Positions 4,416 through 26,039 of a stretch of DNA of 26,039 nucleotides are shown here, in pieces. The DNA comes from a virus. Its lineage: Duplodnaviria; Heunggongvirae; Uroviricota; Caudoviricetes. A program made the position numbers and the translations under genes. Under the pieces are notes generated by a model. It made no database searches. It saw only the letters and a list, made by a program, of their open reading frames with translations, and was not told the DNA's origin. Positions within the stretch are counted from its first letter, which is position 1, and the number at the start of each line of letters is the position of its first letter. The stretch spans positions 1 to 26,039 of IMG/VR virus record IMGVR_UViG_2690315742_000005. One strand, given 5' to 3'.

Positions 4416-4467
4416 CTCTTAATGTTGTGTTGCTCAGTTCGCTTTAACGTCCCGAGCCTACCACAAT

Positions 4468-5046: not shown

Positions 5047-5060
5047 TTAGCATTCTCCAC

Positions 5061-6056: not shown

Positions 6057-6057
6057 C

Positions 6058-6867: not shown

Positions 6868-6886
6868 ACTTCGTTTCTCCTCTTAA

Positions 6887-9558: not shown

Positions 9559-9791
9559 GCTGCACCTCCGAGATGCTTCATGTTTTTTCCGGAGCGAAAG
9601 GCTATAAGCGGCATACTGACGCGGTAATTACGGCCCAGCGGTTCACAAACCACCTTCTGACATTCACGGTCAACCAGGCTAACACGTAGAACATGCCCTG
9701 CAGGCGTGGTGTACCACTGCCCAACTGTAGGAATTGATGTTTTTTTACGCTGAAGCAAACGGCAAATATTGAGGAACAACGGATTAAGCAT
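9555..9791 (-). CDS. hypothetical small protein (early operon)
   Basis: 78-aa ORF translationally coupled (4-bp overlaps) to both flanking genes; no recognisable motif. Confidence 0.4.
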   Translation of the reverse strand: MLNPLFLNICRLLQRKKTSIPTVGQWYTTPAGHVLRVSLVDRECQKVVCEPLGRNYRVSMPLIAFRSGKNMKHLGGAA

Positions 9792-10620
9792 GACGATGCC
9801 CTCCGCTGATATTCAGGAGACGGTGAATATGAAAATTAGCCTTATCCGCCAAACGAATACGTTCAGCCTGCAAGTTAAGAAGCGTTTCTACCAGAACCTG
9901 ATGCGCCTGCGGATCCGAAAGAGTTACCTTGCGCAGAGCACGTAGTGCAGTTGTTACATAACTGAGTTTATGTAAGTCTTCATCATTCAGACGAGTGAGG
10001 GCTGGGACAGTAGCCATGATGGCAGCCTCCTTGATCGGTGAAATACTTCCACCACCGGAAACGCCAATTTCGCTGGTGGTGAACTGAACGGGGTTGGCGT
10101 AACCGGTGATCAAGGAAACCGGCGCATCTTTCGATGCCCCCGCCCAGCCCACCATAACTTTGATGTGAGCAAATGCGGACGATAAAAAAGACGCTGGCGC
10201 GTCATATATCGCCTTGATCAGTTCCAGGACGCCAATCCCGGCACCCGCTTTATAAGGTGCCTGAACAGTGTAACGTCCCGGAATGGCAGAATCAATGTGC
10301 TGGTGGTCCTTCACACTCAACAAAATCACGCCTGAATTTCCACAAAGGACTAAAGCACTCATGCGGGTAGTCTTTGCGAAGATAGATAACGCGCTGTGTT
10401 TCTGGCTCCCAACGAATAACATGGACATAAAGCCCTCTTCCGTCACGAAACCAGCGGTTAAGTTCCTGCACAACTCGCCCCCCACAGTCAGGTAAAGTTC
10501 TCTGTGGTTACTTACAGCCAGGTGATTTGGTAATCTGCATTCATGCCGTAACAACAGGTGTTCAGCGACGCTGACCACCAGCTGTTGCGACAAACGGTTA
10601 TTTGCCGTTAAACTGTTCAT
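9784..10620 (-). CDS. hypothetical protein (early operon, unknown function)
   Basis: 278-aa ORF in operon context between the cII-position gene and the replication gene; Gly-rich stretches (GWAGASKD, GVSGGGS) but no confident family assignment. Confidence 0.5.
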   Translation of the reverse strand: MNSLTANNRLSQQLVVSVAEHLLLRHECRLPNHLAVSNHRELYLTVGGELCRNLTAGFVTEEGFMSMLFVGSQKHSALSIFAKTTRMSALVLCGNSGVILLSVKDHQHIDSAIPGRYTVQAPYKAGAGIGVLELIKAIYDAPASFLSSAFAHIKVMVGWAGASKDAPVSLITGYANPVQFTTSEIGVSGGGSISPIKEAAIMATVPALTRLNDEDLHKLSYVTTALRALRKVTLSDPQAHQVLVETLLNLQAERIRLADKANFHIHRLLNISGGHRHA

Positions 10621-11180
10621 GCGTTAGTTTCTCCACAGACACAAAACGCCACGACGCCCGGAGCTGCACACTCGCGGGCGTCACTCTTTTCTGGAGCGCA
10701 AAAGATTTTGTAGACCAGTGCTGCATGCTCCTGGAGCTTCGAAATTGACAGATACAACTCATCATTAATTGCTGTCTGCTCGTGTGGCTCCACTACCCCA
10801 TCTTCAATTGCCGAACGAATCTGCTTTGAGTAACTCCCGATCTGTTCGATGACTTCCAGCAGGCGCTGGTTTATATCGGCGTTCTCTACTTCCTCAATTT
10901 CAGGAAGCGATACAAACACCCCACCAGCAGACTGTGCGACAGCATCCGCAATGTAGTGAGTGCCAGCCGCGCGCTGTAAAATCATTGCCCATCCCAGCGG
11001 GAAAATCTGATCGCCATCTGCACGAAGGCGGTTGAATAAAGCGTTCTCTGTTACATCCAGCCACTCAGCAGCTTCAGCGTAACCCCCCGGCAACGCCGCG
11101 ATCGTTTTTCTGACAGCTTTCACGTACCACTCAGGCTGTTTTTCTACTTTCCAGTGATGCTTACCCACGGTTAGCCTCAT
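10617..11180 (-). CDS. hypothetical protein in the cII/YdaT position
   Basis: 187-aa ORF immediately downstream of the cro-like gene; functional call is by position only. Confidence 0.4.
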   Translation of the reverse strand: MRLTVGKHHWKVEKQPEWYVKAVRKTIAALPGGYAEAAEWLDVTENALFNRLRADGDQIFPLGWAMILQRAAGTHYIADAVAQSAGGVFVSLPEIEEVENADINQRLLEVIEQIGSYSKQIRSAIEDGVVEPHEQTAINDELYLSISKLQEHAALVYKIFCAPEKSDARECAAPGVVAFCVCGETNA

Positions 11181-11211
11181 CGTTCTGTGGTTAAAAATTG
11201 AAGGTGTTCTG

Positions 11212-11412
11212 TTAATCTTTCGGATAGATATCCGGTCTTAAGTCAGATTTCGTAATTGCACCTGACGTGCATTGCTCAAGTTTTTTAGCCAGCACAAAAC
11301 TGGCTTTTTTATAACCATTGAAAACCAGCCGTAAGTAGCCAGGTGTTGAGCCAACTTTTCCGGCCAACTCGCCCTGCTGTTCTTTGGTTAAAGAGTCCCA
11401 ATACGCTTTCAT
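11212..11412 (-). CDS. Cro-like (YdaS-like) HTH regulator
   Basis: ORF 11212..11517 has an internal ATG at 11412 (MKAYWDSLTKEQQGELAGKVGSTPGYL...) preceded by a GGAGGT RBS 9 nt upstream; small HTH-like protein divergent from the cI-like gene. Confidence 0.6.
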   Translation of the reverse strand: MKAYWDSLTKEQQGELAGKVGSTPGYLRLVFNGYKKASFVLAKKLEQCTSGAITKSDLRPDIYPKD

Positions 11413-11502
11413 ACAATATGTACCTCCGGTATACATATTACATGATTGAAATGAACCTTCAAGATACTTGTACCTTATCGGTACAAAGGTTTTAATTTCG
11501 TT
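11413..11502. promoter_or_regulatory. divergent cro/cI control region with operator-like dyads
   Basis: 90-bp intergenic region containing ACTTGTACC-ttatc-GGTACAAAG (11467..11488) and ATATGTA-N9-TACATAT (11416..11438), both sharing a TGTACC/GGTA(C/T)A core. Confidence 0.45.
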
Positions 11503-12177
11503 ATGAAAACAATCCATGACATCCGGCGGTCTAACGCCAGAAAACTGAGAGATGGTGTTGGCGGAAATTCATCCTTTGCCACCATGATTGATCGCGAGCC
11601 AACCCAAACCAGCAGGTTTATGGGGGATGGCGCTACTAAAAATATCGGTGACAGCATGGCACGGCACATCGAAAAATGTTTCGACCTGCCTGTCGGATGG
11701 CTTGATCAAGAACACCAGACAACGAACATCACAAAAAAACCTGATGTTTCAATCACTAACAAACAAATAACGTTAGTCCCTGTCATATCATGGGTACAGG
11801 CCGGAGCATGGAAAGAAGTTGGCTATTCTGAGGTTGATTTGAGCACAGCAGAAACTTATCCCTGCCCTGTACCCTGTGGCGAAATGACTTATATCTTGCG
11901 GGTGATTGGTGATTCAATGATTGATGAGTACCGCCCTGGAGACATGATTTTTGTTGATCCCGAAGTCCCTGCCTGCCACGGTGACGACGTTATTGCATTG
12001 ATGCACGATACAGGCGAAACTACCTTCAAGCGATTGATAGAAGATGGAACACAGCGTTATCTCAAAGCATTAAACCCAAACTGGCCTGAGCCTTACATTA
12101 AGATTAACGGTAATTGCTCTATAATTGGTACAGTGATTTTCTCGGGAAAACCAAGAAGATACACAATAAAGGCCTAA
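11503..12177 (+). CDS. CI-like prophage repressor (HTH plus S24 LexA-like peptidase domain)
   Basis: 224-aa ORF; C-terminal region VISWVQAGAW...VIGDSMIDEYRPGDMIFVD...FKRL carries the Ala-Gly cleavage site and Ser/Lys dyad pattern of S24 peptidases; divergent from the cro-like gene. Confidence 0.85.
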   Translation: MKTIHDIRRSNARKLRDGVGGNSSFATMIDREPTQTSRFMGDGATKNIGDSMARHIEKCFDLPVGWLDQEHQTTNITKKPDVSITNKQITLVPVISWVQAGAWKEVGYSEVDLSTAETYPCPVPCGEMTYILRVIGDSMIDEYRPGDMIFVDPEVPACHGDDVIALMHDTGETTFKRLIEDGTQRYLKALNPNWPEPYIKINGNCSIIGTVIFSGKPRRYTIKA

Positions 12178-12195
12178 TCAATATTTATGAACCTG

Positions 12196-12222
12196 CTTCG
12201 GCAGGTTTTTTTATACTTGACA
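12196..12222 (+). terminator. rho-independent terminator after the repressor gene
   Basis: Hairpin AACCTGC-TTCG-GCAGGTT followed by TTTTTTTAT, 19 bp after the cI-like stop. Confidence 0.65.
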
Positions 12223-12921
12223 ATGTACCCATGAGATACATAATGTATCCAAAAGAAACATGAGGCAGGCAAGATTCAAACAAAATTTGGTTGTAACACG
12301 GCGTATGGCACATGCGTCGTTAGCGGTCTGGGGACGTTAAAGGGGACAATCCACTCCTTGCTCGGGCAAACAAACCAGGTAGCCGGAATGTGCAAGTCAA
12401 TGATGATGCTGATAAGACGCCTAACCAGCGTGGCGATCCGGTTTGACGCCTGGGAAGAGACCAGGGTGCAACGATGAGGGCATTTATGGAGCCGCGACAA
12501 AGTGTGGTGCCGTAACTGGCTAAGTGCTCTCAGCGTTGTGGTCATCCGCGAAATGGCGCGGCGGTAAGTATGGCTGGGTTACTCTTTCCCCGTTGAGGAC
12601 ACCGGATTGTCAGGTTGACCATACGCCTGAGTGACAACCCCACCACAACAGCCACTGCTTTGGCGGTACCAGTTTGTACACTTGCTTCCGGCTGGTACCG
12701 CTCTTTTTACAAAACAGAGAAGAGCATCACCGGACGACGGGCTCATAACCCAATCCATCCGGGCGGCGGTCACCGCAGGTGTTCTTCTCTGTTTTGTGGA
12801 GAAACTAACCGCCCCTGCGGGGGCATCTATTGAAACGTAATTGCTTAATAATCGCCGGATGGCGAGGGCTTCCTTTTCCCAAAATTCAGCGCAGTGCAGC
12901 GCATATAAAGTGGAGAACGAA

Positions 12922-13458
12922 ATGTCATTTATTAAAACTTTTTCCGGGAAGCATTTTTATTATGACAAGATAAATAAAGACGACATCGTTATTAACGATA
13001 TCGCGGTTTCCCTTTCAAATATCTGTCGCTTTGCTGGTCATCTTTCACACTTCTACAGCGTCGCCCAACATGCGGTGCTTTGCAGCCAGCTGGTACCGCA
13101 GGAATTTGCTTTTGAAGCGTTAATGCATGATGCAACAGAAGCGTATTGCCAGGACATCCCGGCTCCACTGAAACGCCTTCTTCCTGACTATAAACGGATG
13201 GAAGAAAAAATAGACGCCGTAATCCGTGAGAAATACGGGTTACCCCCGGTTATGAGTACACCCGTGAAATATGCCGATCTCATCATGCTGGCAACCGAAC
13301 GCCGCGATCTCGGGCTTGATGATGGCTCTTTCTGGCCTGTGCTGGAAGGTATCCCGGCAACAGAGATGTTCAACGTGATTCCACTGGCTCCAGGCCATGC
13401 CTACGGGATGTTTATGGAACGCTTTAACGAATTATCGGAGTTACGCAAATGCGCATGA
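12922..13458 (+). CDS. HD-domain phosphohydrolase (YfbR-like 5'-deoxynucleotidase-like)
   Basis: ORF 12841..13458; start placed at ATG 12922 (GGAGAA RBS 6 nt upstream). The H..(H) ... HD pattern (AQHAVL ... LMHDATEAY ... PAPLK) parallels YfbR (EHSLQVAMVAH ... MYHDASEVLTGDLPTPVK) as I recall it. Confidence 0.65.
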   Translation: MSFIKTFSGKHFYYDKINKDDIVINDIAVSLSNICRFAGHLSHFYSVAQHAVLCSQLVPQEFAFEALMHDATEAYCQDIPAPLKRLLPDYKRMEEKIDAVIREKYGLPPVMSTPVKYADLIMLATERRDLGLDDGSFWPVLEGIPATEMFNVIPLAPGHAYGMFMERFNELSELRKCA

Positions 13459-14023: not shown

Positions 14024-14082
14024 TTATCAGGACTGGAATTTGATATTACTGCCCGTGTGCAGCGGGCTAAGTGGAGAAACAT

Positions 14083-14289
14083 ATGCTGAACCTCGATTGT
14101 GTTCCTATCTCAACTTATTGCAAAGAAACTGGCGAAACTCCTGAAGCAATAAACAAACGTGTACAGCGCGGTGTTTGGCGTGAAGGTGTTCAGGTTTTAA
14201 AGGTTGAAGGCGTTAAGGAGAGGTGGATTGATCTTAGTGAGGTTGCAAAATGGGCCAGACAAAACTGCTCAAACTACCGCGCGGCGTAA
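14083..14289 (+). CDS. excisionase (Xis-like)
   Basis: ORF 14071..14289; likely start ATG 14083 (GGAGAA RBS upstream). Small basic protein with winged-helix-like KRVQRGVWREGV segment, immediately upstream of and overlapping the integrase gene. Confidence 0.6.
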   Translation: MLNLDCVPISTYCKETGETPEAINKRVQRGVWREGVQVLKVEGVKERWIDLSEVAKWARQNCSNYRAA

Positions 14290-15416
14290 CAATCAGGAAA
14301 CACCGCCAGGGAGAAACGATCAATATAACTTTCACCTACAAAGGAGTTAGATGTCGTGAGCCGCTTTCCAATCTAGAAGTAACACCAAAGAACATTAAAT
14401 ACGCCGAGCGTACACTCGGCGAAATCCATAATAAGATCGAAAGGGGAACATTCATTTATGCAGAATATTTTCCCCGTTCTGCTCGTTTGAAAATTTTTGG
14501 TAATGCTGCTGCAGGCAAAACGGTAAAGATGTACCTGGACGAATATCTTGAAATCTGCGAAACAAGAAAACTTTCACCCTCTACGATTGGTGGCTATAAA
14601 AAATGCCGTAGTGCGTTAGCCTCACTTCACATTTGCCCTGCAAGTGAATTAACACCAGCAACCCTGAAAGCGTGGATTCAAAGCCAGAAAACAACCTTAA
14701 AAACCATTCGCAACCAGTTATCTTTCCTGCGGTCAGCACTTGATGAAGCCGTGACCGATGGGGTACTTCAAATTAACCCCGTATCGTTAGTAACAGCTTC
14801 GCGCTACCAAAGTGATAAGTCAGAAGCAGAAAGCAGCTATGTGGTTGATCCGCTATCACCAGCAGAAGTTGATGCATTATTAGCAGCAGCCGGAAACAAA
14901 CAATGGGAAAATCTGTTCCGGTTCGCCATACATACAGGCCTGCGTAGTTCTGAATTATGTGCCCTTCGATGGCGTGATATCGACTTTGTTGGAAAAACTG
15001 CCCATGTCCAGAGCGCAAGTGTTGTCGGTGTTATCAAAGGGACAAAGACAAAAGCAGGTACTCGTAAAGTTGAACTGACAGAAGAGGCAATGTTGGCGCT
15101 GATAAATCAGAAGCCATTTACATTCATGAAGGATGCTACTGTCTTTGAAGACCCAAAGACCAATAAGCCTTGGGCAAGTGCTGATGCAATAAGGAAAAAA
15201 GCATGGGTGCCAACATTACGAAAAGCAGGTATTCGTTACAGAAACCCATATCAAACCAGGCATACATTCGCCACCCGCCATATCAGCCGGGGAGCGAACC
15301 TGTTTTGGCTTGCAGCTCAAATGGGGCATAAAGGGCCTGAGATGCTTTTCAGGCACTATGGTCGATATCTCAAAGAATACGACGGAAAAAGCTCCATCAA
15401 ATACATTATACAATGA
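14250..15416 (+). CDS. tyrosine integrase (lambda Int family)
   Basis: 388-aa ORF; N-terminal arm-binding-like domain; C-terminal catalytic region with conserved R (TGLRSSELCALRW), HTFATRHISRGANL and GHKGPEMLFRHYGRYL (H-x-x-R ... Y). Confidence 0.9.
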   Translation: MGQTKLLKLPRGVTIRKHRQGETINITFTYKGVRCREPLSNLEVTPKNIKYAERTLGEIHNKIERGTFIYAEYFPRSARLKIFGNAAAGKTVKMYLDEYLEICETRKLSPSTIGGYKKCRSALASLHICPASELTPATLKAWIQSQKTTLKTIRNQLSFLRSALDEAVTDGVLQINPVSLVTASRYQSDKSEAESSYVVDPLSPAEVDALLAAAGNKQWENLFRFAIHTGLRSSELCALRWRDIDFVGKTAHVQSASVVGVIKGTKTKAGTRKVELTEEAMLALINQKPFTFMKDATVFEDPKTNKPWASADAIRKKAWVPTLRKAGIRYRNPYQTRHTFATRHISRGANLFWLAAQMGHKGPEMLFRHYGRYLKEYDGKSSIKYIIQ

Positions 15417-15428: not shown

Positions 15429-16058
15429 TTATTGCCGCCCACATAATTCATTATGCCATTTATCCAAGTAACAATCCAATTGTTTTAATGTTTTCAATAC
15501 ATATACAGGCTTACGTGGCGGATGATTTTTTTGAAAAGAATCATATAAATGCATTATGAAATCGACACAAGCACTAGATACATTCTGAGCGCGAAAAACC
15601 CTATATGACTTATTAAAACAATATGATTTCTCACATTCCATAGTAGCTTCATCTATAATATTAGAAAAATACGAAATTGTTATTTTTATCCCCCTCTCAT
15701 CGAGAAGATTAATGTATTTATTTATTTGTATGGCTTTTCCATGAATTGCCGTTAAATATATTTTCGCCGACTGAGTATGCAATCCATTAGAGTTCTTAAA
15801 ATTTTTTTTCTTAAATGGATTAGAATCTGGTGGTGTTGACTTATTAACCCAGTAATCCAGAGACAAATCTGATATTTCGTTTAAAATTTTAGCAATCGCA
15901 TCTATAATCGATTTAGATTCAGAGCGAGTAGCAATCTTCAGTGAATTATTGTAAGTAACAAACCATCCAATAAACACTAAGATAATACTCACAACACTAA
16001 ACATCCATGCGTAAGTGGACACCCCTGCAAGGGTGTCCTTAATATCAACGGTGTTCAA
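15429..16058 (-). CDS. hypothetical membrane protein (third gene of AT-rich cargo operon); start uncertain
   Basis: ORF 15429..16142; predicted TM helix (MFSVVSIILVFIGWFVTY) then Lys/Asn-rich soluble domain; very low GC. Candidate starts: TTG at 16058 (GGAG 5 nt upstream, 1 nt after the upstream stop), ATG at 16004, or ATG at 16142 (would overlap the upstream gene by 83 nt). The 3' end overlaps a hairpin (15423..15441) shared with the convergent int gene. Confidence 0.5.
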   Translation of the reverse strand: MNTVDIKDTLAGVSTYAWMFSVVSIILVFIGWFVTYNNSLKIATRSESKSIIDAIAKILNEISDLSLDYWVNKSTPPDSNPFKKKNFKNSNGLHTQSAKIYLTAIHGKAIQINKYINLLDERGIKITISYFSNIIDEATMECEKSYCFNKSYRVFRAQNVSSACVDFIMHLYDSFQKNHPPRKPVYVLKTLKQLDCYLDKWHNELCGRQ

Positions 16059-16059
16059 A

Positions 16060-16401
16060 TCAACTCCTTTGGAAAGGCTTCCTTTCTGGATTAGCCATTT
16101 CAATATATCTAAAAATTTGATCTTTATAGAACGGCAAATCACTTTTTATAATTAGTTTTGCCTTAATGTCAGCCTTAGGTACACCTTCCTTCCTAACAAG
16201 CCCTCCAAAGGCCTCCTCTAGAAACGAAGAACCAATCCCATGATTTATACCCGTAAAATCTACGACAACCTCACGCTCACCAGATTTTAATGCAGGAACC
16301 AGAAAGTCCTTACGAAAACGCTCAGCACTGTTCGGGCTGTCAGACTTGAACCTTCCAAATGGCATCTTTGAGAAATCCCTTGCTATGACGATGTTAACCA
16401 T
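16060..16401 (-). CDS. STAS-like (anti-sigma-factor-antagonist-like) small protein
   Basis: 113-aa ORF; EVVVDFTGINHGIGSSFLEEAFGGL matches the STAS/SpoIIAA-like pattern (hydrophobic strand, D-F/L-S/T-G-V, then SSGL/SSFL helix); start overlaps the upstream gene stop by 8 nt. Confidence 0.5.
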   Translation of the reverse strand: MVNIVIARDFSKMPFGRFKSDSPNSAERFRKDFLVPALKSGEREVVVDFTGINHGIGSSFLEEAFGGLVRKEGVPKADIKAKLIIKSDLPFYKDQIFRYIEMANPERKPFQRS

Positions 16402-17317
16402 CTTCTCCTCTCCTCGGAACTAATGACCATTCAATCAATGTTCCCGGCATGTACTCAGGTATCCACTCGCATTTGGGAACCTCATTTCTTGAATTATAGC
16501 TGTACTTAACATTCCCTGTGAACACCAAAAGTGATTCTGAATTCGCACAGCCAGACCCTATAGGTCTCTTTATATCCTCAGAACCATTACCACGTCCAGC
16601 GTTAACATATCTGGACTGTCCTCCTGTCAGGGCTGTTGACACAGATGTCACGTCGTCATACCCAGTAAACAACGGAGAGGCTGAAGTAAATGATTTATGT
16701 ATGCCAAGCCCAAGATCATAAATAATAAAGACAACCTTGTCTGTGTCAGGGTTGTACCAACAACTCTGCCACCATCGTTTCCCTTGCATATGCTCTATAG
16801 CACCAGCAAAGTCTGGATGTTCATATGCATGATATGAAACATTCAGCATTGCCTCACTAAGGGCTGAGGAGACCAAAAGATATTGCTCAAATGTGAGAAT
16901 TGCTTTTGAATCAATAAATTCCATCGTTTTAGCCCAATGTTCATACGGTTCCACAGCAGACTGAAAGTACCTGCGTTCCTTAGTAAGAACATCTAATTTA
17001 TCAACTGTATTTGCCATTAGAGCAATCGATAACCCCGTCCCAACAATATATCGATGCCCATACGGATTATTTTCTTTTTTCGGCCAAATGAATCGAAGAC
17101 TACTTGTGCCGAATGCCATAAAATAAGCCCTACTGATGATAGCAAACAACCTTACGCTAGCTGCAGCACCTGCATATTCTACTGTCGAAAAGTCTATAAC
17201 CACTTGTCCAGATGCTCTCGCAAGGGTGTTATCAACTGAGTTCAAAAACTTAGCTGTAACACGGCGATCAGAATCATTATAAAGGCACAATCTTTTTGGG
17301 GAAATCAACAGTTCCAT
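16394..17317 (-). CDS. GHKL/HATPase_c-type ATPase or Ser-kinase-like protein with possible N-terminal STAS-like region
   Basis: 307-aa ORF with GAGGTG RBS 6 nt upstream. Candidate Bergerat-fold motifs: N-box-like LSEAMLNVSYHAYEH, G1-like FIIYDLGLGIHK (D-x-G-x-G), G2-like NAGRGNGSE. N-terminal QVVIDFSTVEYAGAAASVRLF resembles a STAS-like strand-helix. Low GC. Confidence 0.5.
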   Translation of the reverse strand: MELLISPKRLCLYNDSDRRVTAKFLNSVDNTLARASGQVVIDFSTVEYAGAAASVRLFAIISRAYFMAFGTSSLRFIWPKKENNPYGHRYIVGTGLSIALMANTVDKLDVLTKERRYFQSAVEPYEHWAKTMEFIDSKAILTFEQYLLVSSALSEAMLNVSYHAYEHPDFAGAIEHMQGKRWWQSCWYNPDTDKVVFIIYDLGLGIHKSFTSASPLFTGYDDVTSVSTALTGGQSRYVNAGRGNGSEDIKRPIGSGCANSESLLVFTGNVKYSYNSRNEVPKCEWIPEYMPGTLIEWSLVPRRGEDG

Positions 17318-17458
17318 GGCGACACCTCAGCCAAATCTGTCTAGTCAAAAATGAGCAAAATAAATTACTATAAAATAATGACGAAGTGCACGTTTTTGAT
17401 ACGCAAAGATTGCAGGAAGAAATTAAACTTTATTTTTCATACACATAAATTCAATCAT

Positions 17459-17488
17459 ACGCGGGTTCAACTCCCGCCAGCTCCACCA
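17459..17488 (+). other. attachment-site core: 30-bp copy of the 3' end of tmRNA (ssrA), ending CCA
   Basis: ACGCGGGTTCAACTCCCGCCAGCTCCACCA matches the 3' terminus of E. coli tmRNA as I recall it (...GGACGCGGGUUCAACUCCCGCCAGCUCCACCA); upstream sequence is AT-rich and not tmRNA-like, so this is a partial copy as generated by site-specific integration. Confidence 0.6.
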
Positions 17489-17498
17489 AATAAATCAA

Positions 17499-17531
17499 GG
17501 GGTTACGTGAAAGCGTAGCCCCTTTTTCTTT
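17499..17531 (+). terminator. rho-independent terminator candidate immediately after the tmRNA 3'-end copy
   Basis: Hairpin GGGGTTACG-TGAAA-GCGTAGCCCC (one G-U pair) followed by TTTTTCTTT. Confidence 0.45.
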
Positions 17532-17611
17532 GGTAGTGGCGGCAAAATGGCGACAGACTTTTGCGTCCATCTTGCCTGTCGCCATCTTGAAATCATGCAA
17601 AGAGGTTTCAC

Positions 17612-18094
17612 ATGGAAGAACTTCACTTTGTTTACATCAATGCAAATGGTCGTATCGCTGTTCACTCTATACAGAGCATCAGTTATAGCGAAAATCATAT
17701 ACAGGGCATTTGTAAGAACACCGATCGAATAAAAACCTTCCGAAAAGACCGCATTCTTAAACAGTACGATTCACCAGAACAAGCCATTCAGGAATGCGCG
17801 TCATTCCTCCCCGAAAGCTACTCACATCTCACTAAGCAGTCTGGTCCGAAAAAAAATACATTCGATGTGTGTTTCACCGGATTTAAGAAAGCAGATAAAG
17901 AAAGATTGGTTGATAAGGCGAATGAACAAGGATTAACGGTAAGAACCTCTATAACCCAAAGCCTTCAGATGCTCTGTTGCGGTTACAATGCAGGCCCATC
18001 AAAAGTATCGGCAGCCAGGATGAAAGGCACAATCATCATAGATGAGCCTGGCTTTATACATTTTCTTGAAACGGGTGAGATTCCAGATGAATAA
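17612..18094 (+). CDS. BRCT-domain protein (cargo gene between att core and ogr)
   Basis: 160-aa ORF with AAGAGG RBS; C-terminal 80 aa (FDVCFTGFKKADKERLVDKANEQGLTVRTSITQSLQMLCCGYNAGPSKVSAARMKGTIIIDEPGFIHFL) follows the BRCT pattern seen in NAD-ligase C-termini (F-TG, G-V..S.t....l..G.naGsK..kA...g..ii.E..F); N-terminal 75 aa unassigned; AT-rich. Confidence 0.5.
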   Translation: MEELHFVYINANGRIAVHSIQSISYSENHIQGICKNTDRIKTFRKDRILKQYDSPEQAIQECASFLPESYSHLTKQSGPKKNTFDVCFTGFKKADKERLVDKANEQGLTVRTSITQSLQMLCCGYNAGPSKVSAARMKGTIIIDEPGFIHFLETGEIPDE

Positions 18095-18120: not shown

Positions 18121-18339
18121 TCAAAAATTCATATGCCCCTGACCACCTGGCAATGGATGTGGAGGAGCAGTAGCAATCAGTGCGGGTGTCACAATAAACC
18201 GGACCACTGTTTCATGAGTAACAAAAGTGCTCCCGCAGTTAATATTTTGGCACTGGCAGTAACGCTCTTTGGTGCTTTCAGTTACTTGAAAACTGCTCCT
18301 TGTGTGTGCCGCATGACCACACTTTGGACAATTCATCAT
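18121..18339 (-). CDS. ogr: Ogr/Delta-type zinc-finger late transcription activator
   Basis: ORF 18121..18384; from the internal Met (MMNCPKCGHAAHTRSS...TKERYCQCQNINCGSTF...PHPLPGGQ) it is 72 aa and matches P2 Ogr (CPLCQHAAH...TKERYHQCQNVNCSATF...PHPLPSGQ) including the four zinc-ligand Cys. Confidence 0.85.
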   Translation of the reverse strand: MMNCPKCGHAAHTRSSFQVTESTKERYCQCQNINCGSTFVTHETVVRFIVTPALIATAPPHPLPGGQGHMNF

Positions 18340-18407
18340 ATCCAGATCCCTACCTTTGCTATCAGAATCATTGTAATGATACACAAAATATCAATATTGA
18401 GAACACT

Positions 18408-19508
18408 TTATTCCATTTCAAGATCATCAATCTTCACTTCGAGTTCAATACTGGTTGTAAAACCGTTATCCGGGCTGACGGTATGTGTCAGAGTCGTAAT
18501 GGTCCATTCCGCATCATCTATCGGCTGTTTAAAACCACTGACCTTCACAGGCATTTCCGTGTAGAGATCTGCCCGCCCTTCTGCCAGTTGTAGCGAAAAT
18601 GACGCAACGCCGCGTTGCAGGCGTTCCCACTGCATTTTCGCCGCTCGTTCGGCGTTGCTCCGGTTGGCATAAGTGCGATTAAGTACCAGCACGTTTTCAT
18701 CCGTACCCACCAGGTAATCGCCCTGCTTCGCTTCTGGCTCTTTCTTCTGCTTCTTAGTTCTGCGCTTACGCTTCACCGTGGTGCTTTCTTTCTTCGCAGG
18801 TTCGCGGGTATGCAACCAGCTGGCAATTACGCCCGTGTAGGCTCCGCGATCTGCCAGGGTAAATCGGTGACTGTCGCCGTCCTTGCGTGTGATAGTGATC
18901 ACTGGCAGAGGTTTACCAGTGGCGCTTTTGCCCTGCCCCTGCCGGATGAATAACAGATTGCCATTTTTCACCGACGCGATGGCACCGTACTGTCGCGCCA
19001 GCCGCATCAGAAAACTGCCGTCACTCTCATTAGTCTGGTCTATATGCTCCACGGGCTTATCCGACAGGTCTTTACCCAGTGCCATCTTCAGCTTGTGCCG
19101 CGCGGCTATTTCCTTCACCACTTCCCCGACGGTGGTCTTATGCCACGATTTTTCACGGCGGGTATTCAGCGTTTCCCGAAAATCAGCACTTCGCGCCCGG
19201 ATAGTCAGGCGGTCCGGTGCGCCAGTGTGTTCAATCTCGTCCACTGTGAATGCCCCTTTCGGGAAAAGCGGCTGCCCCTTCCAGCCCAGCGCCAGCGTAA
19301 TAACCGCACCACGGCGCGGCAGCACGATTTTTCCGTCAGCGTCATCCAGCTCCAGATCAAGCTGGTCCGCTTCAAAGCCCCGGTTATCCGTCAGCGTCAA
19401 ACTCATCAGGCGGTTATCCAGCACAGTGGTGATATCCCTGCCCTCAATACTGATGCTGAATGCGGGAGTTTTGTTGCCTTTGTTAAGCAGTTCAGAGCTG
19501 AAATTCAC
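18408..19508 (-). CDS. D: P2-like tail protein D
   Basis: 366-aa ORF directly downstream of U and upstream of ogr, the conserved P2 order FI-FII-E-T-U-D-ogr; size and character fit gpD. Confidence 0.8.
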   Translation of the reverse strand: MNFSSELLNKGNKTPAFSISIEGRDITTVLDNRLMSLTLTDNRGFEADQLDLELDDADGKIVLPRRGAVITLALGWKGQPLFPKGAFTVDEIEHTGAPDRLTIRARSADFRETLNTRREKSWHKTTVGEVVKEIAARHKLKMALGKDLSDKPVEHIDQTNESDGSFLMRLARQYGAIASVKNGNLLFIRQGQGKSATGKPLPVITITRKDGDSHRFTLADRGAYTGVIASWLHTREPAKKESTTVKRKRRTKKQKKEPEAKQGDYLVGTDENVLVLNRTYANRSNAERAAKMQWERLQRGVASFSLQLAEGRADLYTEMPVKVSGFKQPIDDAEWTITTLTHTVSPDNGFTTSIELEVKIDDLEME

Positions 19509-19990
19509 GACAGCAGCCCTCCCACCGTTTTACTGATATCGCTTAAGGCAGACGTTGCCGTGTCCTGCAAATTATTCAGTTGCGCACTGAGATCACCGAA
19601 CATATCGGACAGGGATTCATCCACTCGTTTGAGCGACAGGGTGAACTCAATCCGGCGCGGCATACCGTCGCGGAAAAACTCCGTTTTAGTCTGATTCAGT
19701 CCCTCAATCACATACATGCCGTAAATCGTGCCGCTGCCTTCAATCAGGGGCCATGCTTTCCCCTGTTCTGCCATCTGCTCCAGTGCCAGCAACGACAGCC
19801 TGCCGCCTGTTATTTCCGGCATAAGAACACCGGAAAGCGTCAGCATGTCGTTTTCCGGTCCCAGAAACTGCGTGGACGGACGTCGGTTTACCCGACTGTT
19901 TGCCGCATGTCGCCAGCTGCGTTGATACTGCAGTTCCTGATACGGAACGGTGCGCAGCATAAACACGTACAATCCCAGCACCATCATCAT
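19505..19990 (-). CDS. U: P2-like tail protein U
   Basis: 161-aa ORF between T and D with 4-bp overlaps; size matches P2 gpU. Confidence 0.8.
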   Translation of the reverse strand: MMMVLGLYVFMLRTVPYQELQYQRSWRHAANSRVNRRPSTQFLGPENDMLTLSGVLMPEITGGRLSLLALEQMAEQGKAWPLIEGSGTIYGMYVIEGLNQTKTEFFRDGMPRRIEFTLSLKRVDESLSDMFGDLSAQLNNLQDTATSALSDISKTVGGLLS

Positions 19991-22900
19991 GCGTCGTATC
20001 CCCCCTGATCGCTGTAGTTACTCCTGGCTTTTGCCTTCAGCCTGCGTTCACGTTCATCAAGCTGGCGTGCCACCTCCCGCGCAATATCCTGCGCACTTTG
20101 TCCTGGCTGCGTCTGAATGATGATCTGCGTCGGTGCCTCAATCCGTTGAACGAGCGGCACAGTGGCTGCGCGACTCACAATTGCTTCTCCACCTTTCGCG
20201 GGAAGTGCCAAAGGGTGCAACGGTGGAAGCTCTGCTGGCGCGGCAGCAACGCCCATCATTCCGGCAACAACGGCAGCCAGTGCAGCTGTATTTCTCCGGC
20301 TGGTCACATTTGCCGGGCCGTTAACAATTTCCGGCCCGTTTTCACCGACGATGCCAAACTGCCCGCGCGGGATATACCCACCGCTGTCATACATCCCCGC
20401 AAAGCCATATCCCCATGATGGAAAACCACCCGATGGCATCATCACTTTACCGTCTGCATTCACCGTCGCAGGTTGCTGACGCGTCACGCTTTCCGGCAGT
20501 TTTGCCTTTGCGGCCTCTTTACTGACAATGCCGAGCTTCTCCAGCAACCAGGAAACGCCGGATTTCAGGGAGTCCAGCGGATGCATGACCATATTCAGCC
20601 CTTCCGCCAGTGCCTCCCCGAATCGCCGCCCCATTGCCGCTGCGCTCTGCAGTTCGGCAGAGGTCGACTTAACGGGCGTCAGCAGATCAGTAAACCAGCC
20701 CCACAGCGCCTGCACTTTGTCGCCAATCCACTGGAACACGGGCTTAAGCGGTTCGAACGCTGCACTGATGGGACCTGCCGCCGCTTTGAATCCTTCCACC
20801 ACGCCACCGAGAAATGCGGTGATGGGTTGCCAGTATTTCCAGACAACCAGCGCCACGCCCGCCAGTGCAGTAACCACAAGACCTATCGGACTGAGCAGAG
20901 CACCTAACAGACCAGATATGGCATACAGGGCAACGCGCAGCATCGCCAGCGGGCCGGATGCGAGCACACGCAGCACCGCGCCTGCGGCAGCCAGCCCACC
21001 GCGTAGTGCTGCCAGTGGATTCATAAACATCACAGCAACAGCACGTAAACCGGATAATCCAGACCGCAAAAGTGCAACCGGCGCACCTGCTACAGTTTTC
21101 AGGACATTCCCCATCAGTGATACCGTGCGACGCAAAGACGACAACGGAGCAGTAAGTAAACCCGCTGCGTTGCCCGATGAAGCAAGCCCGCGTCGCAGCA
21201 GTGCCAGTGGTGCGCCAGCCAGCCAGGACAACGCGCTGCTGGTTCGAGTTACTGCTGCCGTAACGGAAGGTAACGTTTTGATACCCAGCACAGAGAATCC
21301 CAGACGGATCACTGCCAGCGGCCCCAGCACTGCAGCCAGCGCCACCGCTAAGGTGCCGAGGCCTACGGTAACCGCAGCCACAACAGCCACTACTTTCATC
21401 AGTGTGCCTGTCAGTTCCGGGTTAGCTTCCACCCAGCGGCGCAACGCCCCCGTGACGCTTTTCACCGTGTACAGAATATCCATCAGCGGCTGGCGCAGCG
21501 TTTCGCCCAGGCTGCTGAAGGTGTTCTGCGCTCCGGTTTTGACCAGCAACCACTGAGCAGAAAGTGAGTCTTTGTTGATGTCGGATTCTTTCTGCATCGA
21601 ACCGAGCGCATCATTGCCCGCTGTCAGTTTTAGCTGGCGCTGTAGTTCCGGCAGGTTGTTTGCCAGTTTCGCCGCGTCATCGCCAAACTCTTTACCAAAC
21701 AACATGGTCATGGCAGACAGACGCTTGTCCTGCGGCAGTGCGTTCACCTTCTCCAGTACACGCTGGATGGTTCCCATCGCATCCTTCGTCATCTGCTTTT
21801 CAATCACTTCAGGATTGAGTTTCAGCAGATTCATCCCTTCAAAGAAACTCTTGCTTTGCATGGTGGCAATGGACAATTCACGCACCATCGCGTTTGCTGC
21901 ACTGGCTGCAACCTCCGGCGCAGCGCCCAGTGTCAGAAAGGTGGAACCCAGTGCCGCCGCTTTACGATAATCCAGACGGTCAGCCACACCGCCCAGACGT
22001 TGCATCACATCAATGATGTCCGCCCCTTTCGACATGGCGTTATCATCCAGATAGTTCAGCGCATCGCCGAGCTGTTCAATATTGCGGGTAGGTATTTTGT
22101 AGAGCTGGGCGATTTTCCCCAGACTTTCTGACAGTTCATCCGCTGGCAGCTCAAAGGCTGTTGCCGCCTTTGCTGCCGTACTGGCGAAGGCCAGCAGGTC
22201 ACGTTTCTGGTCTTCCCAGCTGTCGTCAGGGTTTGCCACGTTCATGCGCGCACCACCTTCAACCAGTGCAGCGAAGTCCACCGCACCGTTTTCCATCGGC
22301 AACTGTTCGCTGGCAGCCTTGATGGCATCCTGCATTTCGTAAAAACGCGCAGTGCGGTTGCCATTATCGTCACGCAGACCATTGACCTGCTTTGCCACAC
22401 CTTTCATGGCATCTTCCATGCTGGCATAGCTTTTTACCGCCGCCATCACTGGCGCGCCCATTGCCAGCCCTGCAGCCGTGGTGGTGGCTCCGGCTCCTGC
22501 GATACGATCGCGCACTTCAAGCCGTCTTGAGTATTGTTCTCTGGCAGCGTTCATCCGTGCCTGTTGTTCACCCAGACGTTTAAGTGCTTTTTGCTGGCCC
22601 TCCAGTGCCTGCCTTGTTTCTTCAGCATTTTTCTTAAGTTCTCGCTGGGCACTACTGAGTTGCCTGGTATCAATCCCTGATTCTTTAAGTGCCTGACGTT
22701 GTCTCTGGACCGCCCCCAACAAGCCGTTATAGGTCTGCTGAAGTTCCTGTACTCGTGTTTTGGCCTGACTGAATAACTTTGCCTGCGCGGCGGTTGGCCT
22801 GTTAGTGGCAGCAAATTGTGTGGCGAGTTTTGCCGCCTCTTCGCGGGCTGCGTTCAGGTTGTTGGCTGTTATGGCTAGTTGCGAGCGCGTCTTGCGAAAC

Positions 22901-23064
22901 TCATCAATTCTGCCAGCCTGCTTATTCAGTTCTTTGAGGCTGTTTCTGGTATTCTGAATTGCGCCAGCCAGCTCTTTCGAACTGGCCTGTGCAGCACGGA
23001 ATGGGCGGGTGAGTTTGTCAACCGCATTAAGAATGACCTGCAGACGCAGGTTGTTATCACTCAT
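19987..23064 (-). CDS. T: tail tape measure protein (gpT-like)
   Basis: 1025-aa ORF; N-terminal coiled-coil (Ala/Gln/Arg-rich) region, central hydrophobic Ala/Leu/Gly-rich repeats, C-terminal Gly-rich part; follows E/E' as in P2. Confidence 0.9.
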   Translation of the reverse strand: MSDNNLRLQVILNAVDKLTRPFRAAQASSKELAGAIQNTRNSLKELNKQAGRIDEFRKTRSQLAITANNLNAAREEAAKLATQFAATNRPTAAQAKLFSQAKTRVQELQQTYNGLLGAVQRQRQALKESGIDTRQLSSAQRELKKNAEETRQALEGQQKALKRLGEQQARMNAAREQYSRRLEVRDRIAGAGATTTAAGLAMGAPVMAAVKSYASMEDAMKGVAKQVNGLRDDNGNRTARFYEMQDAIKAASEQLPMENGAVDFAALVEGGARMNVANPDDSWEDQKRDLLAFASTAAKAATAFELPADELSESLGKIAQLYKIPTRNIEQLGDALNYLDDNAMSKGADIIDVMQRLGGVADRLDYRKAAALGSTFLTLGAAPEVAASAANAMVRELSIATMQSKSFFEGMNLLKLNPEVIEKQMTKDAMGTIQRVLEKVNALPQDKRLSAMTMLFGKEFGDDAAKLANNLPELQRQLKLTAGNDALGSMQKESDINKDSLSAQWLLVKTGAQNTFSSLGETLRQPLMDILYTVKSVTGALRRWVEANPELTGTLMKVVAVVAAVTVGLGTLAVALAAVLGPLAVIRLGFSVLGIKTLPSVTAAVTRTSSALSWLAGAPLALLRRGLASSGNAAGLLTAPLSSLRRTVSLMGNVLKTVAGAPVALLRSGLSGLRAVAVMFMNPLAALRGGLAAAGAVLRVLASGPLAMLRVALYAISGLLGALLSPIGLVVTALAGVALVVWKYWQPITAFLGGVVEGFKAAAGPISAAFEPLKPVFQWIGDKVQALWGWFTDLLTPVKSTSAELQSAAAMGRRFGEALAEGLNMVMHPLDSLKSGVSWLLEKLGIVSKEAAKAKLPESVTRQQPATVNADGKVMMPSGGFPSWGYGFAGMYDSGGYIPRGQFGIVGENGPEIVNGPANVTSRRNTAALAAVVAGMMGVAAAPAELPPLHPLALPAKGGEAIVSRAATVPLVQRIEAPTQIIIQTQPGQSAQDIAREVARQLDERERRLKAKARSNYSDQGGYDA

Positions 23065-23493
23065 CGTTGGCCCCGCTTCTCTGAATCGCTTTATACCGCC
23101 ATTCCAGCACTTCGGTCAGCGGCATAACGTCAGTAACGGATGGCGGCCAGTGAAAAATGGTGGCGATATCTGCCACCAGATCGTCAACCGTCAGGCTGTC
23201 GGTAAACCGGCAAGCACCGACTTCTTCAACAAAAAAGTGACAACCTCAACCGACATGGCAGTGAGATCTGCCGGGTCCATCTCTGCAATTTCCTGTGCAG
23301 TCAGTGCCGGGCTGGAGATGCGGGGGATCACGGTCATCATCGCGTTCACATCCATATCCATAATGGCCTGCAGGCGTGTACCGCGTAGCGCACCAGACTG
23401 CGGTTTACGCAGCACAATTTCGGTAATTTCTGTTTTACCGCGCTTGATAGGGGTATCCAGTTGAATGGTCTTTTCAGTCTGCTTATCGCTCAT
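23057..23493 (-). CDS. E+E' fusion product via programmed -1 translational frameshift (slip site at 23230..23237)
   Basis: On the minus strand gene E reads ...GTC ACT TTT TTG TTG AAG...; the -1 frame after TTTTTTG stays open (...VEEVGACRFTDSLTVDDLVADIATIFHWPPSVTDVMPLTEVLEWRYKAIQRSGANDE) and ends at a TGA (23059..23057) overlapping the T start codon, the P2 E/E' arrangement. Hand translation. Confidence 0.6.
23191..23493 (-). CDS. E: tail assembly chaperone E
   Basis: 100-aa acidic ORF between FII and T; slippery CTTTTTTG near its 3' end, as in P2 gene E. Confidence 0.8.
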   Translation of the reverse strand: MSDKQTEKTIQLDTPIKRGKTEITEIVLRKPQSGALRGTRLQAIMDMDVNAMMTVIPRISSPALTAQEIAEMDPADLTAMSVEVVTFLLKKSVLAGLPTA

Positions 23494-23547
23494 TTTGTTG
23501 TCCTGTGAATTGGGTTCTGGCGCGGAATCCCGCGCCGTTCAGATACA

Positions 23548-24063
23548 TCAGAGGCCGAGGGCGTTGCGGTGCGCTTCCATCAGGTCCACACCGTCCACAA
23601 TTTCCACCATGTTGATAAGGTCCACTTCATAGAGCACCTCACCATTGATGGTCAGCTTCGCGTAGCTGTTGGTACTGGTCACTTTGGTGGTGTTGCTTTC
23701 GCCCGTCTTCCACTCACCGGAATCCACTTCTTTGTGACGTCCACGTACCACAAGCTCCACGGGCTGCACTTCCCCGGTATCGTCACGCTGGATAGAGCCG
23801 GTAAAGCGCAGCTGGATGCCATCCACCGTGGCTTTGCCCATCTGCTTAAACAGCAGCAGTTCAGTACCACCAATGGAAAATTCTGTATCCAGTGCACTGT
23901 CATCCAGTCCCAGATCCACATCCACCGCCCCCGGCATACCGCCGCCGCGATACTTCTCATATTTGCGGGTGAATTTCGGCAGCGTCAGCGACTCAACGAT
24001 TCCCTGCCAGTTGTTCCCGTCGTTAAACAGGTTCAGATGTTTTAATTTGCGTGGTAAAGCCAT
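23548..24063 (-). CDS. FII: major tail tube protein FII
   Basis: 171-aa ORF; N-terminus MALPRKLKHLNLFNDGNNWQG and position downstream of the sheath gene fit P2 FII. Confidence 0.85.
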   Translation of the reverse strand: MALPRKLKHLNLFNDGNNWQGIVESLTLPKFTRKYEKYRGGGMPGAVDVDLGLDDSALDTEFSIGGTELLLFKQMGKATVDGIQLRFTGSIQRDDTGEVQPVELVVRGRHKEVDSGEWKTGESNTTKVTSTNSYAKLTINGEVLYEVDLINMVEIVDGVDLMEAHRNALGL

Positions 24064-24072
24064 GTTGTCCCC

Positions 24073-25245
24073 TTACGCGCTGACCTGGCTGGCGAAATTC
24101 ACCAGGTACTGATCGGTGATGCGCTGGCGCAGCATCAGATTTTCAAGTGGCGGCACTGGCGTGTAGTCGTAGTCGATGGTGAGTTTTCCGGCTTTAAGCG
24201 TGTCTTTGTCGTTCACCGACTCATCCAACCAGCAATCACCACCAATGAGATAGCCCTGACTGACCAGGTTGCGCATTTTGGCGCGGATACCTTCGATAAT
24301 GTCGCGGGCCAGCGACGGGTTCAGCGGTTTGTCCACCGCCCACATATGTGCTTCTGCCATTGTGTCCATCAGTACCTGCGCTGTGCGGGTGTAGTTTTCG
24401 AAGGCAAAAAGCGGATCATCGCTCAGACAGCGGGAACCCCAGAAGCGGAAACCATCCTTGCGCACAAGCGTGGTGACGTCGTTCTGGTTAAGCAGTCCCG
24501 CATCGGTTGCCGGGTCCTGCAGATCCCAGAACACATCAGCAGAAATTCCGGTGACACCGTTCACGCCCACGTTGGACAGGCTTTTGTGCCACCCGGTCTG
24601 CTCATCAATTTTGGCACGCAGACCAAGCGCACGGGCGGTGGCATATGCCGTTGCTTCGGCATTCAGCACCGTGTCCCAGCCAGTAAAGTCGGGCCAGATC
24701 AGCATCCCTTCGCGCTGGCTGAAGTTTTCACGGTAAGTGATTGCCTCCTGCACAGTCTTGCAGCCATACGCTGACAGGTAAGCAAACCCACGCAGGCTTT
24801 GCGCCACACTCAGCAACTCAGTAGCTACCGCCTTGGTGTCGTGACCTGGTACACCCAGAATGCGCGGTTTAACGCCGAGCTGTGACTGAGCAGATAACAG
24901 AGCTTTCATGCCTGTTTTTTTACCTTCAGCAGTCACTGCGCCGATGATATTGGTCGTGGTTTCTTCTTCCGTTTCACCCTGCGGCACACGCACAACAACG
25001 GTCACGGGTTTTGCCTGGTCAGCGATGGCATCCAGCGAACGGGCCAGCGTGCCGGACTCACCCGCTTTACCGCTGGCAGTCAGCACATCAGTGATCAGCA
25101 CGGGTTTATTAAGAGGAAACATTTTTGCATCGGCATCATCGCCCGTGCAGACCATACCCACGATGGCGGTGCTCACCGTGGTAATGGATCGGGTGCCTTC
25201 GTTGACTTCAACAACGCGCACCCCGTGGTGGTAATCCTGAGCCAT
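24073..25245 (-). CDS. FI: contractile tail sheath protein FI
   Basis: 390-aa ORF; long identical stretches to P2 FI as I recall it ([112 protein letters not shown]). Confidence 0.9.
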
Positions 25246-25387
25246 AGTGGCGAACCTCCTGATTGGATTAGGCTTCGCCCTATGTTGAAGTGATTGTGCC
25301 TGACAAACAGCTAAGCGCAGTTGTACCGTTATTCACACAAAATGACGGTATTTGTCTGCTTTCAGGGATAATCAAAATAAAGCTGAT

Positions 25388-25960
25388 TCAGGGAGATTTA
25401 TTGCTCTTATTTGCCGGAAGTTTTCGATAAATGGTAGAAACGCCTACATCAAAAATCAGTGCAATACGCTGTCTTGATTCTCCGGCCTCGAGTAAACGTC
25501 CAATCTGTGCCCACTGTTCAGTGGTCAACTTAGGACGGCGTCCACCTACTCTGCCTTTAGCACGAGCTGCAGCCAGCCCTGCCCGGGTACGTTCAACTAT
25601 CAGTTCGCGTTCCATTTCAGCCAGGGCACCCATGACATGAAAAAAGAAACGGCCCATTGGGGTACTGGTATCAATACTGTCAGTCAGGCTTCGGAAATTC
25701 ACACCACGCTGGCGCAACTCTTCTATCAGCGTAACAAGATGCCGCATACTGCGCCCCAACCTGTCCAGCTTCCAGACAACCAGCGTGTCTCCTGCCAATA
25801 GTGTCCTGAGCAGTTTTTTAAGCCCCGGTCTGTCGGACTTAGTGCCACTGATTTTGTCCTCAAAAATCCGCTCACATCCCGCGCAGTTCAGCGCATTACG
25901 TTGCAAATCGGTGTTCTGGTCATTTGTTGACACGCGTACATAGCCAATAAGCATGATCAT
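25388..25960 (-). CDS. serine-recombinase DNA invertase (Gin/Hin/Pin/Cin family)
   Basis: 190-aa ORF; N-terminal catalytic domain MLIGYVRVSTNDQNTDLQ (active-site Ser in RVST.DQ) and C-terminal HTH (GESRQRIALIFDVGVSTIYRK); located between tail sheath and the expected tail-fibre region. Confidence 0.9.
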   Translation of the reverse strand: MIMLIGYVRVSTNDQNTDLQRNALNCAGCERIFEDKISGTKSDRPGLKKLLRTLLAGDTLVVWKLDRLGRSMRHLVTLIEELRQRGVNFRSLTDSIDTSTPMGRFFFHVMGALAEMERELIVERTRAGLAAARAKGRVGGRRPKLTTEQWAQIGRLLEAGESRQRIALIFDVGVSTIYRKLPANKSNKSP

Positions 25961-26009
25961 CTCCCTGAATAAAAATAGGGGATGATGCCAGTTAGCCGTA
26001 ATCGCTGCA

Positions 26010-26035
26010 TTTTCTTAAACGTTGGTTTGGGAGAA
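26010..26035. promoter_or_regulatory. candidate invertase crossover site (gix/hix-like imperfect 26-bp dyad) at the edge of an invertible segment
   Basis: TTTTCTTAAACG-TT-GGTTTGGGAGAA: half-sites share TT.TC...AAAC(C), resembling hixL TTCTTGAAAACC-AA-GGTTTTTGATAA as I recall it; about 50 bp upstream of the invertase start. Confidence 0.45.
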
Positions 26036-26039
26036 GGCG

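Follow-up and report, generated by a model that had tools for sequence, protein, structure and literature searches.

Mobile elements that use tyrosine integrases at tRNA and tmRNA genes carry the 3' part of the target gene in attP, and their integration regenerates the gene (PMC4383910). The original 3' end is moved to the far border of the element, and several elements on one gene give rise to tandem arrays (PMC4383910; PMC8112680). The Islander database contains 125 such arrays at tDNA targets, each island having its own integrase and its own fragment (PMC4383910). At the tmRNA gene ssrA, attP and attB of phage phiNP were mapped by sequencing lysogens to the 25-bp 3' end of the gene, GGTTCAACTCCCGCCAGCTCCACCA (PMC6456863), and the P2-like phages Fels-2 and SopEPhi are reported to integrate there as well (PMC3448106). 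CP4-57, which lies downstream of ssrA in E. coli K-12 and supplies the 3' end of the gene, has a P4-type integrase; when it excises, T357 is lost and tmRNA becomes inactive (PMC10107115). In STEC and EPEC, prophage-in-prophage clusters form at one locus where a resident prophage holds an attB usable by another phage; the classical tandem case is treated in the discussion of the same paper (PMC8112680).

We analysed a stretch of viral DNA of 26,039 nucleotides, the window, in which a 30-nt copy of the ssrA 3' end separates a lambdoid from a P2-like prophage. This fragment is very probably the att copy inside an array of prophages that stand in tandem at the tmRNA gene. The data show what the fragment is, where both elements end, that each occurs at ssrA without the other, and that the integrases are related to those of phages known to target ssrA.

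The locus follows the pattern of tandem tDNA islands, in which island DNA rebuilds the target gene, each island ends at a displaced 3' fragment in direct orientation and elements with different integrases queue at ssrA. It does not differ from them in principle; its particular feature is the pairing of a phiNP-type lambdoid with a Fels-2-type P2-like prophage, seen in 0 of 5426 complete E. coli genomes. The phenomenon is already known, as are the two phage families and their att sites, and the present case is one more ssrA example. Its chief value lies in annotation, since it fixes the exact boundaries of the two elements, the lambdoid ending on its right at 17488 and the P2-like prophage starting on its left at 17489.

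Two of the described systems differ from this locus in instructive ways. Like CP4-57, the elements here lie downstream of ssrA and supply its 3' end, but the fragment in the window is a perfect copy, so excision of the lambdoid should restore the wild-type 3' end of ssrA together with the P2-like terminator. As in the STEC and EPEC clusters, the resident prophage carries a site usable by another phage, in that attP and attL of the P2-like element contain the 30-bp target of the lambdoid. In those clusters, however, the secondary attB lies inside the resident prophage, whereas the target here is the chromosomal gene as rebuilt at the edge of the prophage.

The ssrA fragment at the junction

The core of the junction is the 3' end of ssrA. 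ACGCGGGTTCAACTCCCGCCAGCTCCACCA, on the plus strand at 17459-17488, aligns with the last 30 nt of the annotated ssrA of E. coli LF4-1 at 30 of 30 positions (reference locus L001; ssrA 5668-6030, counterpart of the 30-mer 6001-6030), so that the 30-bp match to the tmRNA 3' end in the preliminary description is exact. A tDNA 3'-end fragment at the island boundary, the mark used by Islander, is present here as this 30/30 match at 17459-17488. When 17300-17700 was compared by megablast with 5426 complete E. coli genomes, perfect matches started exactly at 17459 and overlapped annotated ssrA. The 26-nt core occurs once within the window and in none of 100 shuffles.

Placed on the Rfam tmRNA alignment of LF4-1 ssrA, the 30-mer opens with A, the final base of helix 2, and C, one linker base; the T-stem half GCGGG, the T-loop UUCAACU, the T-stem half CCCGC, the 3' strand of the acceptor (CAGCUCC) and ACCA follow. 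ARAGORN and Rfam (RF00023) detect no tmRNA gene over the whole window; 17459-17488 is therefore a fragment only, and a second tmRNA gene at this position is ruled out. With 30 of 363 nt in the window, the tRNA-like domain, tag reading frame and pseudoknots expected of a functional tmRNA are not there. We annotate 17459..17488 (+) as a displaced ssrA 3' end that forms a hybrid att core, being at once the attR core of the lambdoid and the remainder of the attL core of the P2-like prophage.

A lambdoid prophage on the left

The left flank is a lambdoid prophage related to SfV and phiNP. Window positions 1-13400 are 98.6% identical to prophages at ssrA in UTAK-14 and other E. coli strains, and phage SfV covers 51% of the query 1-17458 at 96.7% identity. 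By homology to UTAK-14 and SfV, 1..13458 contains SfV-like early, lysis and packaging genes: terminase small subunit, HNH, lysis cassette, DUF968, KilA-N, RusA, Dam, PerC, replication genes and an immunity region, with a cro-like gene and yfdR also among them. Relatives of this lambdoid have full sets of head genes and of Mu-like tail genes of their own.

The left flank also carries the repressor, an xis-like ORF and int. A CI-like repressor of the LexA/S24 family lies at 11503..12177 (+; Peptidase_S24, and annotated ymfK/LexA in homologous loci), and a 388-aa tyrosine integrase of phiNP type at 14250..15416 (+), with an arm-binding Arm-DNA-bind_2 domain (9.5e-24) and a catalytic Phage_integrase domain (9.5e-17). 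A small ORF that overlaps the int start (14071..14289, +) is a probable excisionase; it has no Pfam match, so the assignment goes by position, the phiNP ORF in the same place being annotated xis.

The integrase points to ssrA as the target of this element. It shares 92.2% amino-acid identity with the Int of Citrobacter phage phiNP (OR565852) over 99% of its length, and this kinship, together with the mapped phiNP att site, indicates that it is ssrA-specific. The two phages have the same order of xis, int, cargo and attP. The published phiNP 25-mer corresponds to window positions 17464-17488, inside the 30-mer, and also terminates the phiNP record; a G-to-T difference just upstream limits the identity block of phiNP to 25 bp, against 30 bp for the lambdoid of the window, whose block starts 2 nt ahead of the T-stem. 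Both phages have a P' arm with the same segment of about 150 bp that resembles DNA downstream of ssrA. They differ in the cargo after int (an AAA ATPase in phiNP, a three-gene operon in the window), in the sequence of the P arm and in the rest of the prophage, which in the window is SfV-like and from E. coli.

The non-coding P arm of the lambdoid occupies 17318..17458 (+), between the last cargo gene and the core. The same P arm with the same core recurs in 10 complete genomes and at loci L002, L003 and L007-L016. A comparison of arm motifs found GATACGCAAAG, at 17398-17408 in this arm, again in the P' arm of this family of phages, which makes it a candidate arm-type Int site.

A P2-like prophage on the right

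From the right edge of the core onward, the window is P2-like phage DNA of the Fels-2/Elveevirus type. Positions 17489-26036 match the free Escherichia phage Cartapus (Peduoviridae, Elveevirus) in one piece, at 96.9% identity over 8.5 kb. Annotation transferred from LF4-1, in keeping with the Cartapus match, places a late and tail module on the minus strand at 18121..26039: ogr (18121-18339), D (18408-19508), U (19505-19990), the tape measure gene T (19987-23064), E/E' (23057-23493), tube FII (23548-24063), sheath FI (24073-25245) and an invertase-like ORF (25388-25960). The series ogr-D-U-T-E-FII-FI is collinear with that of Peduoviridae of this type.

LF4-1 and Cartapus show how this phage sits at ssrA and how it is built when free. 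In LF4-1 the intact ssrA is followed by the terminator, a BRCT gene, ogr, D, U, the tape measure, E, the tube and the sheath; the far end of the prophage, about 32 kb away, has cI, int, dCTP-deaminase cargo, a 45-bp ssrA repeat and then native DNA. Cartapus attP reads P arm, ATGTAGGAATTTCGG plus the 30-mer (a 45-nt ssrA copy), AATAAATCAAGGGGTTACGTGAAAGCGTAGCCCC and onward, and the BRCT gene. The P2-like ssrA repeat is 45 bp, and at the window junction the attL of this prophage retains the last 30 of these 45 core nucleotides, with lambdoid DNA upstream. Fels-2, SopEPhi and Cartapus likewise combine P2-like late genes with an attP in which the ssrA 3' end lies between ogr and int. The integrase of Cartapus is of the Fels-2 (186-like) type, with 92.3% identity to Fels-2 Int. 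The window ends before it reaches int, cI and the far-end cargo of its own P2-like copy; cargo at that end varies, LF4-1 having a dCTP deaminase and Cartapus a RES-domain protein.

The P' arm of the P2-like phage, at 17489..17611 (+), comprises the spacer AATAAATC, an intrinsic terminator and repeats of the motif TGGCGRCA. It directly follows the intact ssrA in LF4-1 and the 45-nt ssrA copy in Cartapus attP, and 17489-17632 differs from the Cartapus arm at two positions (17529 and 17611). The hairpin of the terminator begins 8 bases downstream of the 30-mer, at 17497-17524, and closes a 4-nt loop with a 12-bp stem, behind which lies TTTCTTT; it folds at -19.8 kcal/mol (z = -4.9), a value that none of 200 shuffles reached. 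The whole rho-independent terminator (17497..17531, +) has the same hairpin as in Cartapus and LF4-1. Since both the hairpin and the BRCT gene follow the attP ssrA copy in free Cartapus, they are phage DNA, and the terminator belongs to the P2-like phage and not to the host. In single P2-like lysogens the phage terminator ends the regenerated ssrA; in the window it is orphaned behind a 30-nt fragment.

The observations of the preliminary description hold in each particular: a lambdoid int-xis-cI arm on the left (repressor and int by Pfam and homology, xis by position only), the ogr-D-U-T end of a P2-like tail module on the right (by the LF4-1 annotation and the 96.9% Cartapus match) and a terminator-like hairpin after the 30-mer, to which we add that the ssrA terminator is supplied by the P2-like phage. 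Its statement that tmRNA is a target of both lambdoid and P2-like elements agrees with the mapped phiNP site (PMC6456863) and with what is reported for Fels-2 and SopEPhi (PMC3448106).

Repeats in the arm suggest where the P2-like integrase may bind. Candidate arm-type Int-binding repeats lie at 17537..17589, with GTGGCGGCAAAATGGCGACAGA at 17537-17558 and the inverted CTGTCGCCATCTTG at 17576-17589. The GTGGCGGCAAAATGGCGACAGA 22-mer recurs on the opposite arm, beside the P2-like attR in LF4-1, and a rearranged version is present in the P arm of Cartapus. Both P2-like att arms contain TGGCGRCA-type repeats, direct in the P arm (L005 ~8490-8512, minus strand; L019 ~2050-2075, minus strand) and both direct and inverted in the P' arm; they are probably arm-type Int sites. 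The start codon of the lambdoid cargo gene is overlapped by one more exact copy, ATGGCGACA at 17316-17324, perhaps by coincidence.

Occurrence of the elements and of their junction

Each element is found at ssrA without the other. Of the 5426 complete E. coli genomes, 10 contain the lambdoid right arm with the core (17290-17488), with 99-100% identity. Strain 2A shows the solitary arrangement, with intact smpB-ssrA, a prophage of about 41 kb, int, the same cargo, the 30-bp core and native glaH. We searched public assemblies for the protein of the cargo gene closest to the junction. Across the loci compared, the same arm and core run into at least five different right-hand sequences: native DNA (L002, L010, L012), P4-type-integrase islands of three kinds (L003 with L013-L016; L007; L011) and the P2-like arm (the window and L009). 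The sequence from 17489 onward, in turn, follows an intact ssrA directly in about 170 complete genomes (169-174), so P2-like lysogens at ssrA are about 17 times as common as lambdoid ones. In a four-way alignment, homology breaks exactly at both edges of the 30-mer.

Counts of the P2-like lysogen depend on the span that is matched. The query 17459-17700 matched 2739 genomes, of which 174 have the full junction of ssrA with the P2-like arm; most of the matches are trivial ssrA matches of 32-35 nt, and an intermediate group carries a 77-nt relic described below. The reading of the 2739 matches as a very common P2-like lysogen is accordingly ruled out.

The pairing of the two phages at ssrA is rare. 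No megablast match spanned the junction in the 5426 complete E. coli genomes, and scans for the exact junction in one representative genome per species and in JGI metagenome contigs found none. Chance pairing would yield about 0.3 genomes (10 x 170 / 5426), so that the result for the complete genomes is unsurprising. The junction recurs in one other, independent assembly, GCA_027276205.1 (L009), where 8.5 kb (window 12660-21219) match at 98.7% identity. Its P2-like partner, at L009 5230-7813, has a large internal deletion: homology ends within the gene for the tape measure at 21219, beyond which the first called gene is a homologue of gpO, the capsid scaffold. This copy is thus defective, and elements of such an array can be so.

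Integration history and alternative explanations

Tandem integration at the tmRNA gene explains the junction with known steps. The attP of both phages holds a copy of the ssrA 3' end, which tyrosine integrases would recombine with the chromosomal gene; each integration would rebuild ssrA from phage DNA and move the old 3' end to the opposite border of the prophage. In the proposed order, the P2-like phage would have lysogenised first, placing its terminator and BRCT gene after ssrA, and the lambdoid would then have integrated into the regenerated ssrA of this resident lysogen. That insertion would have shifted the last 30 nt of the gene and the entire P2-like prophage about 40 kb downstream, creating a hybrid site in the order lambdoid P arm, 30-bp core, P2-like P' arm. 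Beside the intact ssrA, the model predicts the P' arm of the lambdoid, beginning ATCATGATTGG, and to the right of the 30-bp core it predicts a P2-like prophage of about 33 kb, with int, the 45-bp repeat and native DNA at its far end. The 7-nt T-loop between the inverted halves of the T-stem has the geometry of an overlap region flanked by core-type sites, and we infer that crossover takes place in the T-loop with the T-stem halves in that role.

The full array would have three copies of the ssrA end. Because the window stops short of the intact ssrA on one side and of the P2-like int and attR on the other, this picture is drawn from the homologous loci, which place an intact ssrA at one end and a 45-bp distal repeat at the other. 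Either element may be able to excise today. Conceivably, though we think it unlikely, excision of the P2-like prophage has to wait for loss of the lambdoid, an ordered, hierarchical induction, or recombination of the P2-like attR with the distant ssrA removes the array of about 75 kb as one circle. If so, the two prophages would form an interdependent pair acting as one unit, with accessory genes, perhaps directed against phages, to the left and right of the junction.

The lambdoid could instead have arrived first, with the P2-like phage integrating later into the displaced 30-bp fragment, the lambdoid attR. In principle, integration can use any att copy of an array, and a crossover within the last 30 nt would be expected to give a junction identical base for base; since both orders give the same junction, sequence does not prove the order. 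The P2-like identity block, however, is 45 bp, of which the intact ssrA offers the full site, while the fragment offers 30 bp with unrelated lambdoid DNA upstream. Other arrays with this lambdoid, for instance that of UTAK-10, have it next to ssrA and an older P4-type island distal to it, which fits a pattern with the newest element closest to the intact gene. The roughly 17-fold excess of P2-like over lambdoid lysogens at ssrA also speaks against the reverse order. We consider it improbable, because a Fels-2-type Int would have had to prefer a truncated site over an intact gene.

Homologous recombination or transduction between a lambdoid and a P2-like lysogen, within ssrA or its flanks, could have brought the two prophages together, and an assembly misjoin at the short repeat could have imitated such an event. 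Lysogens of both kinds have ssrA and its flanks in common, and the approximately 150 bp of the phiNP-type P' arm that resemble native DNA downstream of ssrA offer additional substrate for RecA. Even so, a hybrid site formed in this way still needs one earlier site-specific recombination. The misjoin is rejected, as the 30-bp repeat is shorter than typical assembly k-mers and the same junction is present in an independent contig of 4.9 Mb (GCA_027276205.1). Taken together, we regard these routes as very improbable.

The preliminary description had left open whether the region is a tandem integration or a composite element, and the single composite does not survive. A mosaic prophage in which lambdoid early genes were fused to a P2-like tail module, with an internal att relic retained, would account for gene sets that are contiguous in the window with 294 bp of non-coding DNA between the cargo genes, but we reject it as next to impossible: each half is known as a complete, separately bounded prophage at ssrA, the right half from the exact core edge belongs to the genome of a free phage (Cartapus) with its own attP, the lambdoid relatives have complete head and Mu-like tail genes, and homology breaks exactly at the two edges of the 30-mer, so that each element is independently bounded at the 30-bp core. 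The solitary occurrence of both elements at ssrA, the five right-hand contexts and the Cartapus attP all argue for a tandem array.

Cargo genes beside the core

Both accessory loci sit in att-proximal cargo slots of their phages, a context that bears on their appraisal as candidate defence systems. The three-gene operon at 15429..17317 (-) occupies the lambdoid cargo slot, which runs from int to attR, and ends 141 bp left of the core; the BRCT-domain gene at 17612..18094 (+), which Cartapus also has, lies between the P2-like P' arm and ogr and starts 123 bp right of the core. The accessory loci thus abut the core as first described.

The operon encodes a 307-aa protein with a weak match to HATPase_c_2, a 113-aa STAS-like DUF4325 protein and a 209-aa protein with a weak match to a 2TM effector profile. 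The BRCT protein matches the PADLOC candidate PDC-S48 at 4e-7, and its Cartapus counterpart is annotated 'putative exonuclease'. PADLOC and Pfam gave weak or domain-level matches for the four cargo proteins and named no defence system.

The same slots hold other genes in related phages. Between int and att, UTAK-14 has an ATP/GTP-binding protein and RloB, and phiNP has its AAA ATPase (L004 23637-25588; L017 4671-6458); from this gene content the lambdoid slot looks like a hotspot for defence cargo. The P2-like cargo varies at both att-proximal ends, with the BRCT protein on the ogr side and, on the int side, the anti-phage dCTP deaminase of LF4-1 or the RES-domain protein of Cartapus (L005 8608-10350; L019 2084-3289).

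Small RNAs, variant att sites and relics

The lambdoid early region contains two adjacent full-length Rfam matches on the minus strand, the C4 antisense RNA (10072-10159; 82 bits) and the Hfq-binding sRNA IsrK (10184-10260; 63 bits). Both fall inside an ORF of the 'ash family' at 9784-10620. The pair suggests a P1/P7-type antisense-controlled antirepressor module, and the call of this 278-aa ORF may be too long.

The phiNP-type P' arm resembles host DNA. Its segment of about 150 bp, with two hairpins, is about 90% identical to the DNA that follows ssrA or the att fragment in island-free E. coli, and copies lie at L006 10700-10901 (-), L002 9090-9250, L018 26-180 and L005 8200-8354 (-). The phage may have taken up the trailer and terminator of the native ssrA; alternatively, what counts as 'native' may be a scar left by an old phage. 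With this segment included, the direct att repeats of strain 2A are about 180 bp long instead of 30. In the genome from which the window derives, the segment would leave direct repeats flanking the whole array, which could be substrates for RecA.

One lambdoid attR is truncated. GCA_026869115.1 (L008 ~9830-9860, minus strand) carries the fragment minus 7 bp, reading ...CCCGCCAGC|CAATCATG, with TCCACCA missing. Int-mediated excision at that locus would damage the 3' end of ssrA or be blocked.

A further trace of integration lies outside any intact prophage. In E. coli MSHS 472 (L020 4001-4076), a 77-nt relic is found about 3.5 kb downstream of ssrA, in the stretch from a recombinase pseudogene to ypjCB. 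Its components are an ssrA end that has degenerated, CCGCCAGCTCAACA, the terminator hairpin of the P2-like phage and a portion of the TGGCGRCA motif of the arm. The relic is present in 7 of 30 sampled rows of the listing of its spread (H151-H157), which suggests that many E. coli genomes carry it. From its make-up, it looks like the fossil of an earlier Fels-2-type integration.
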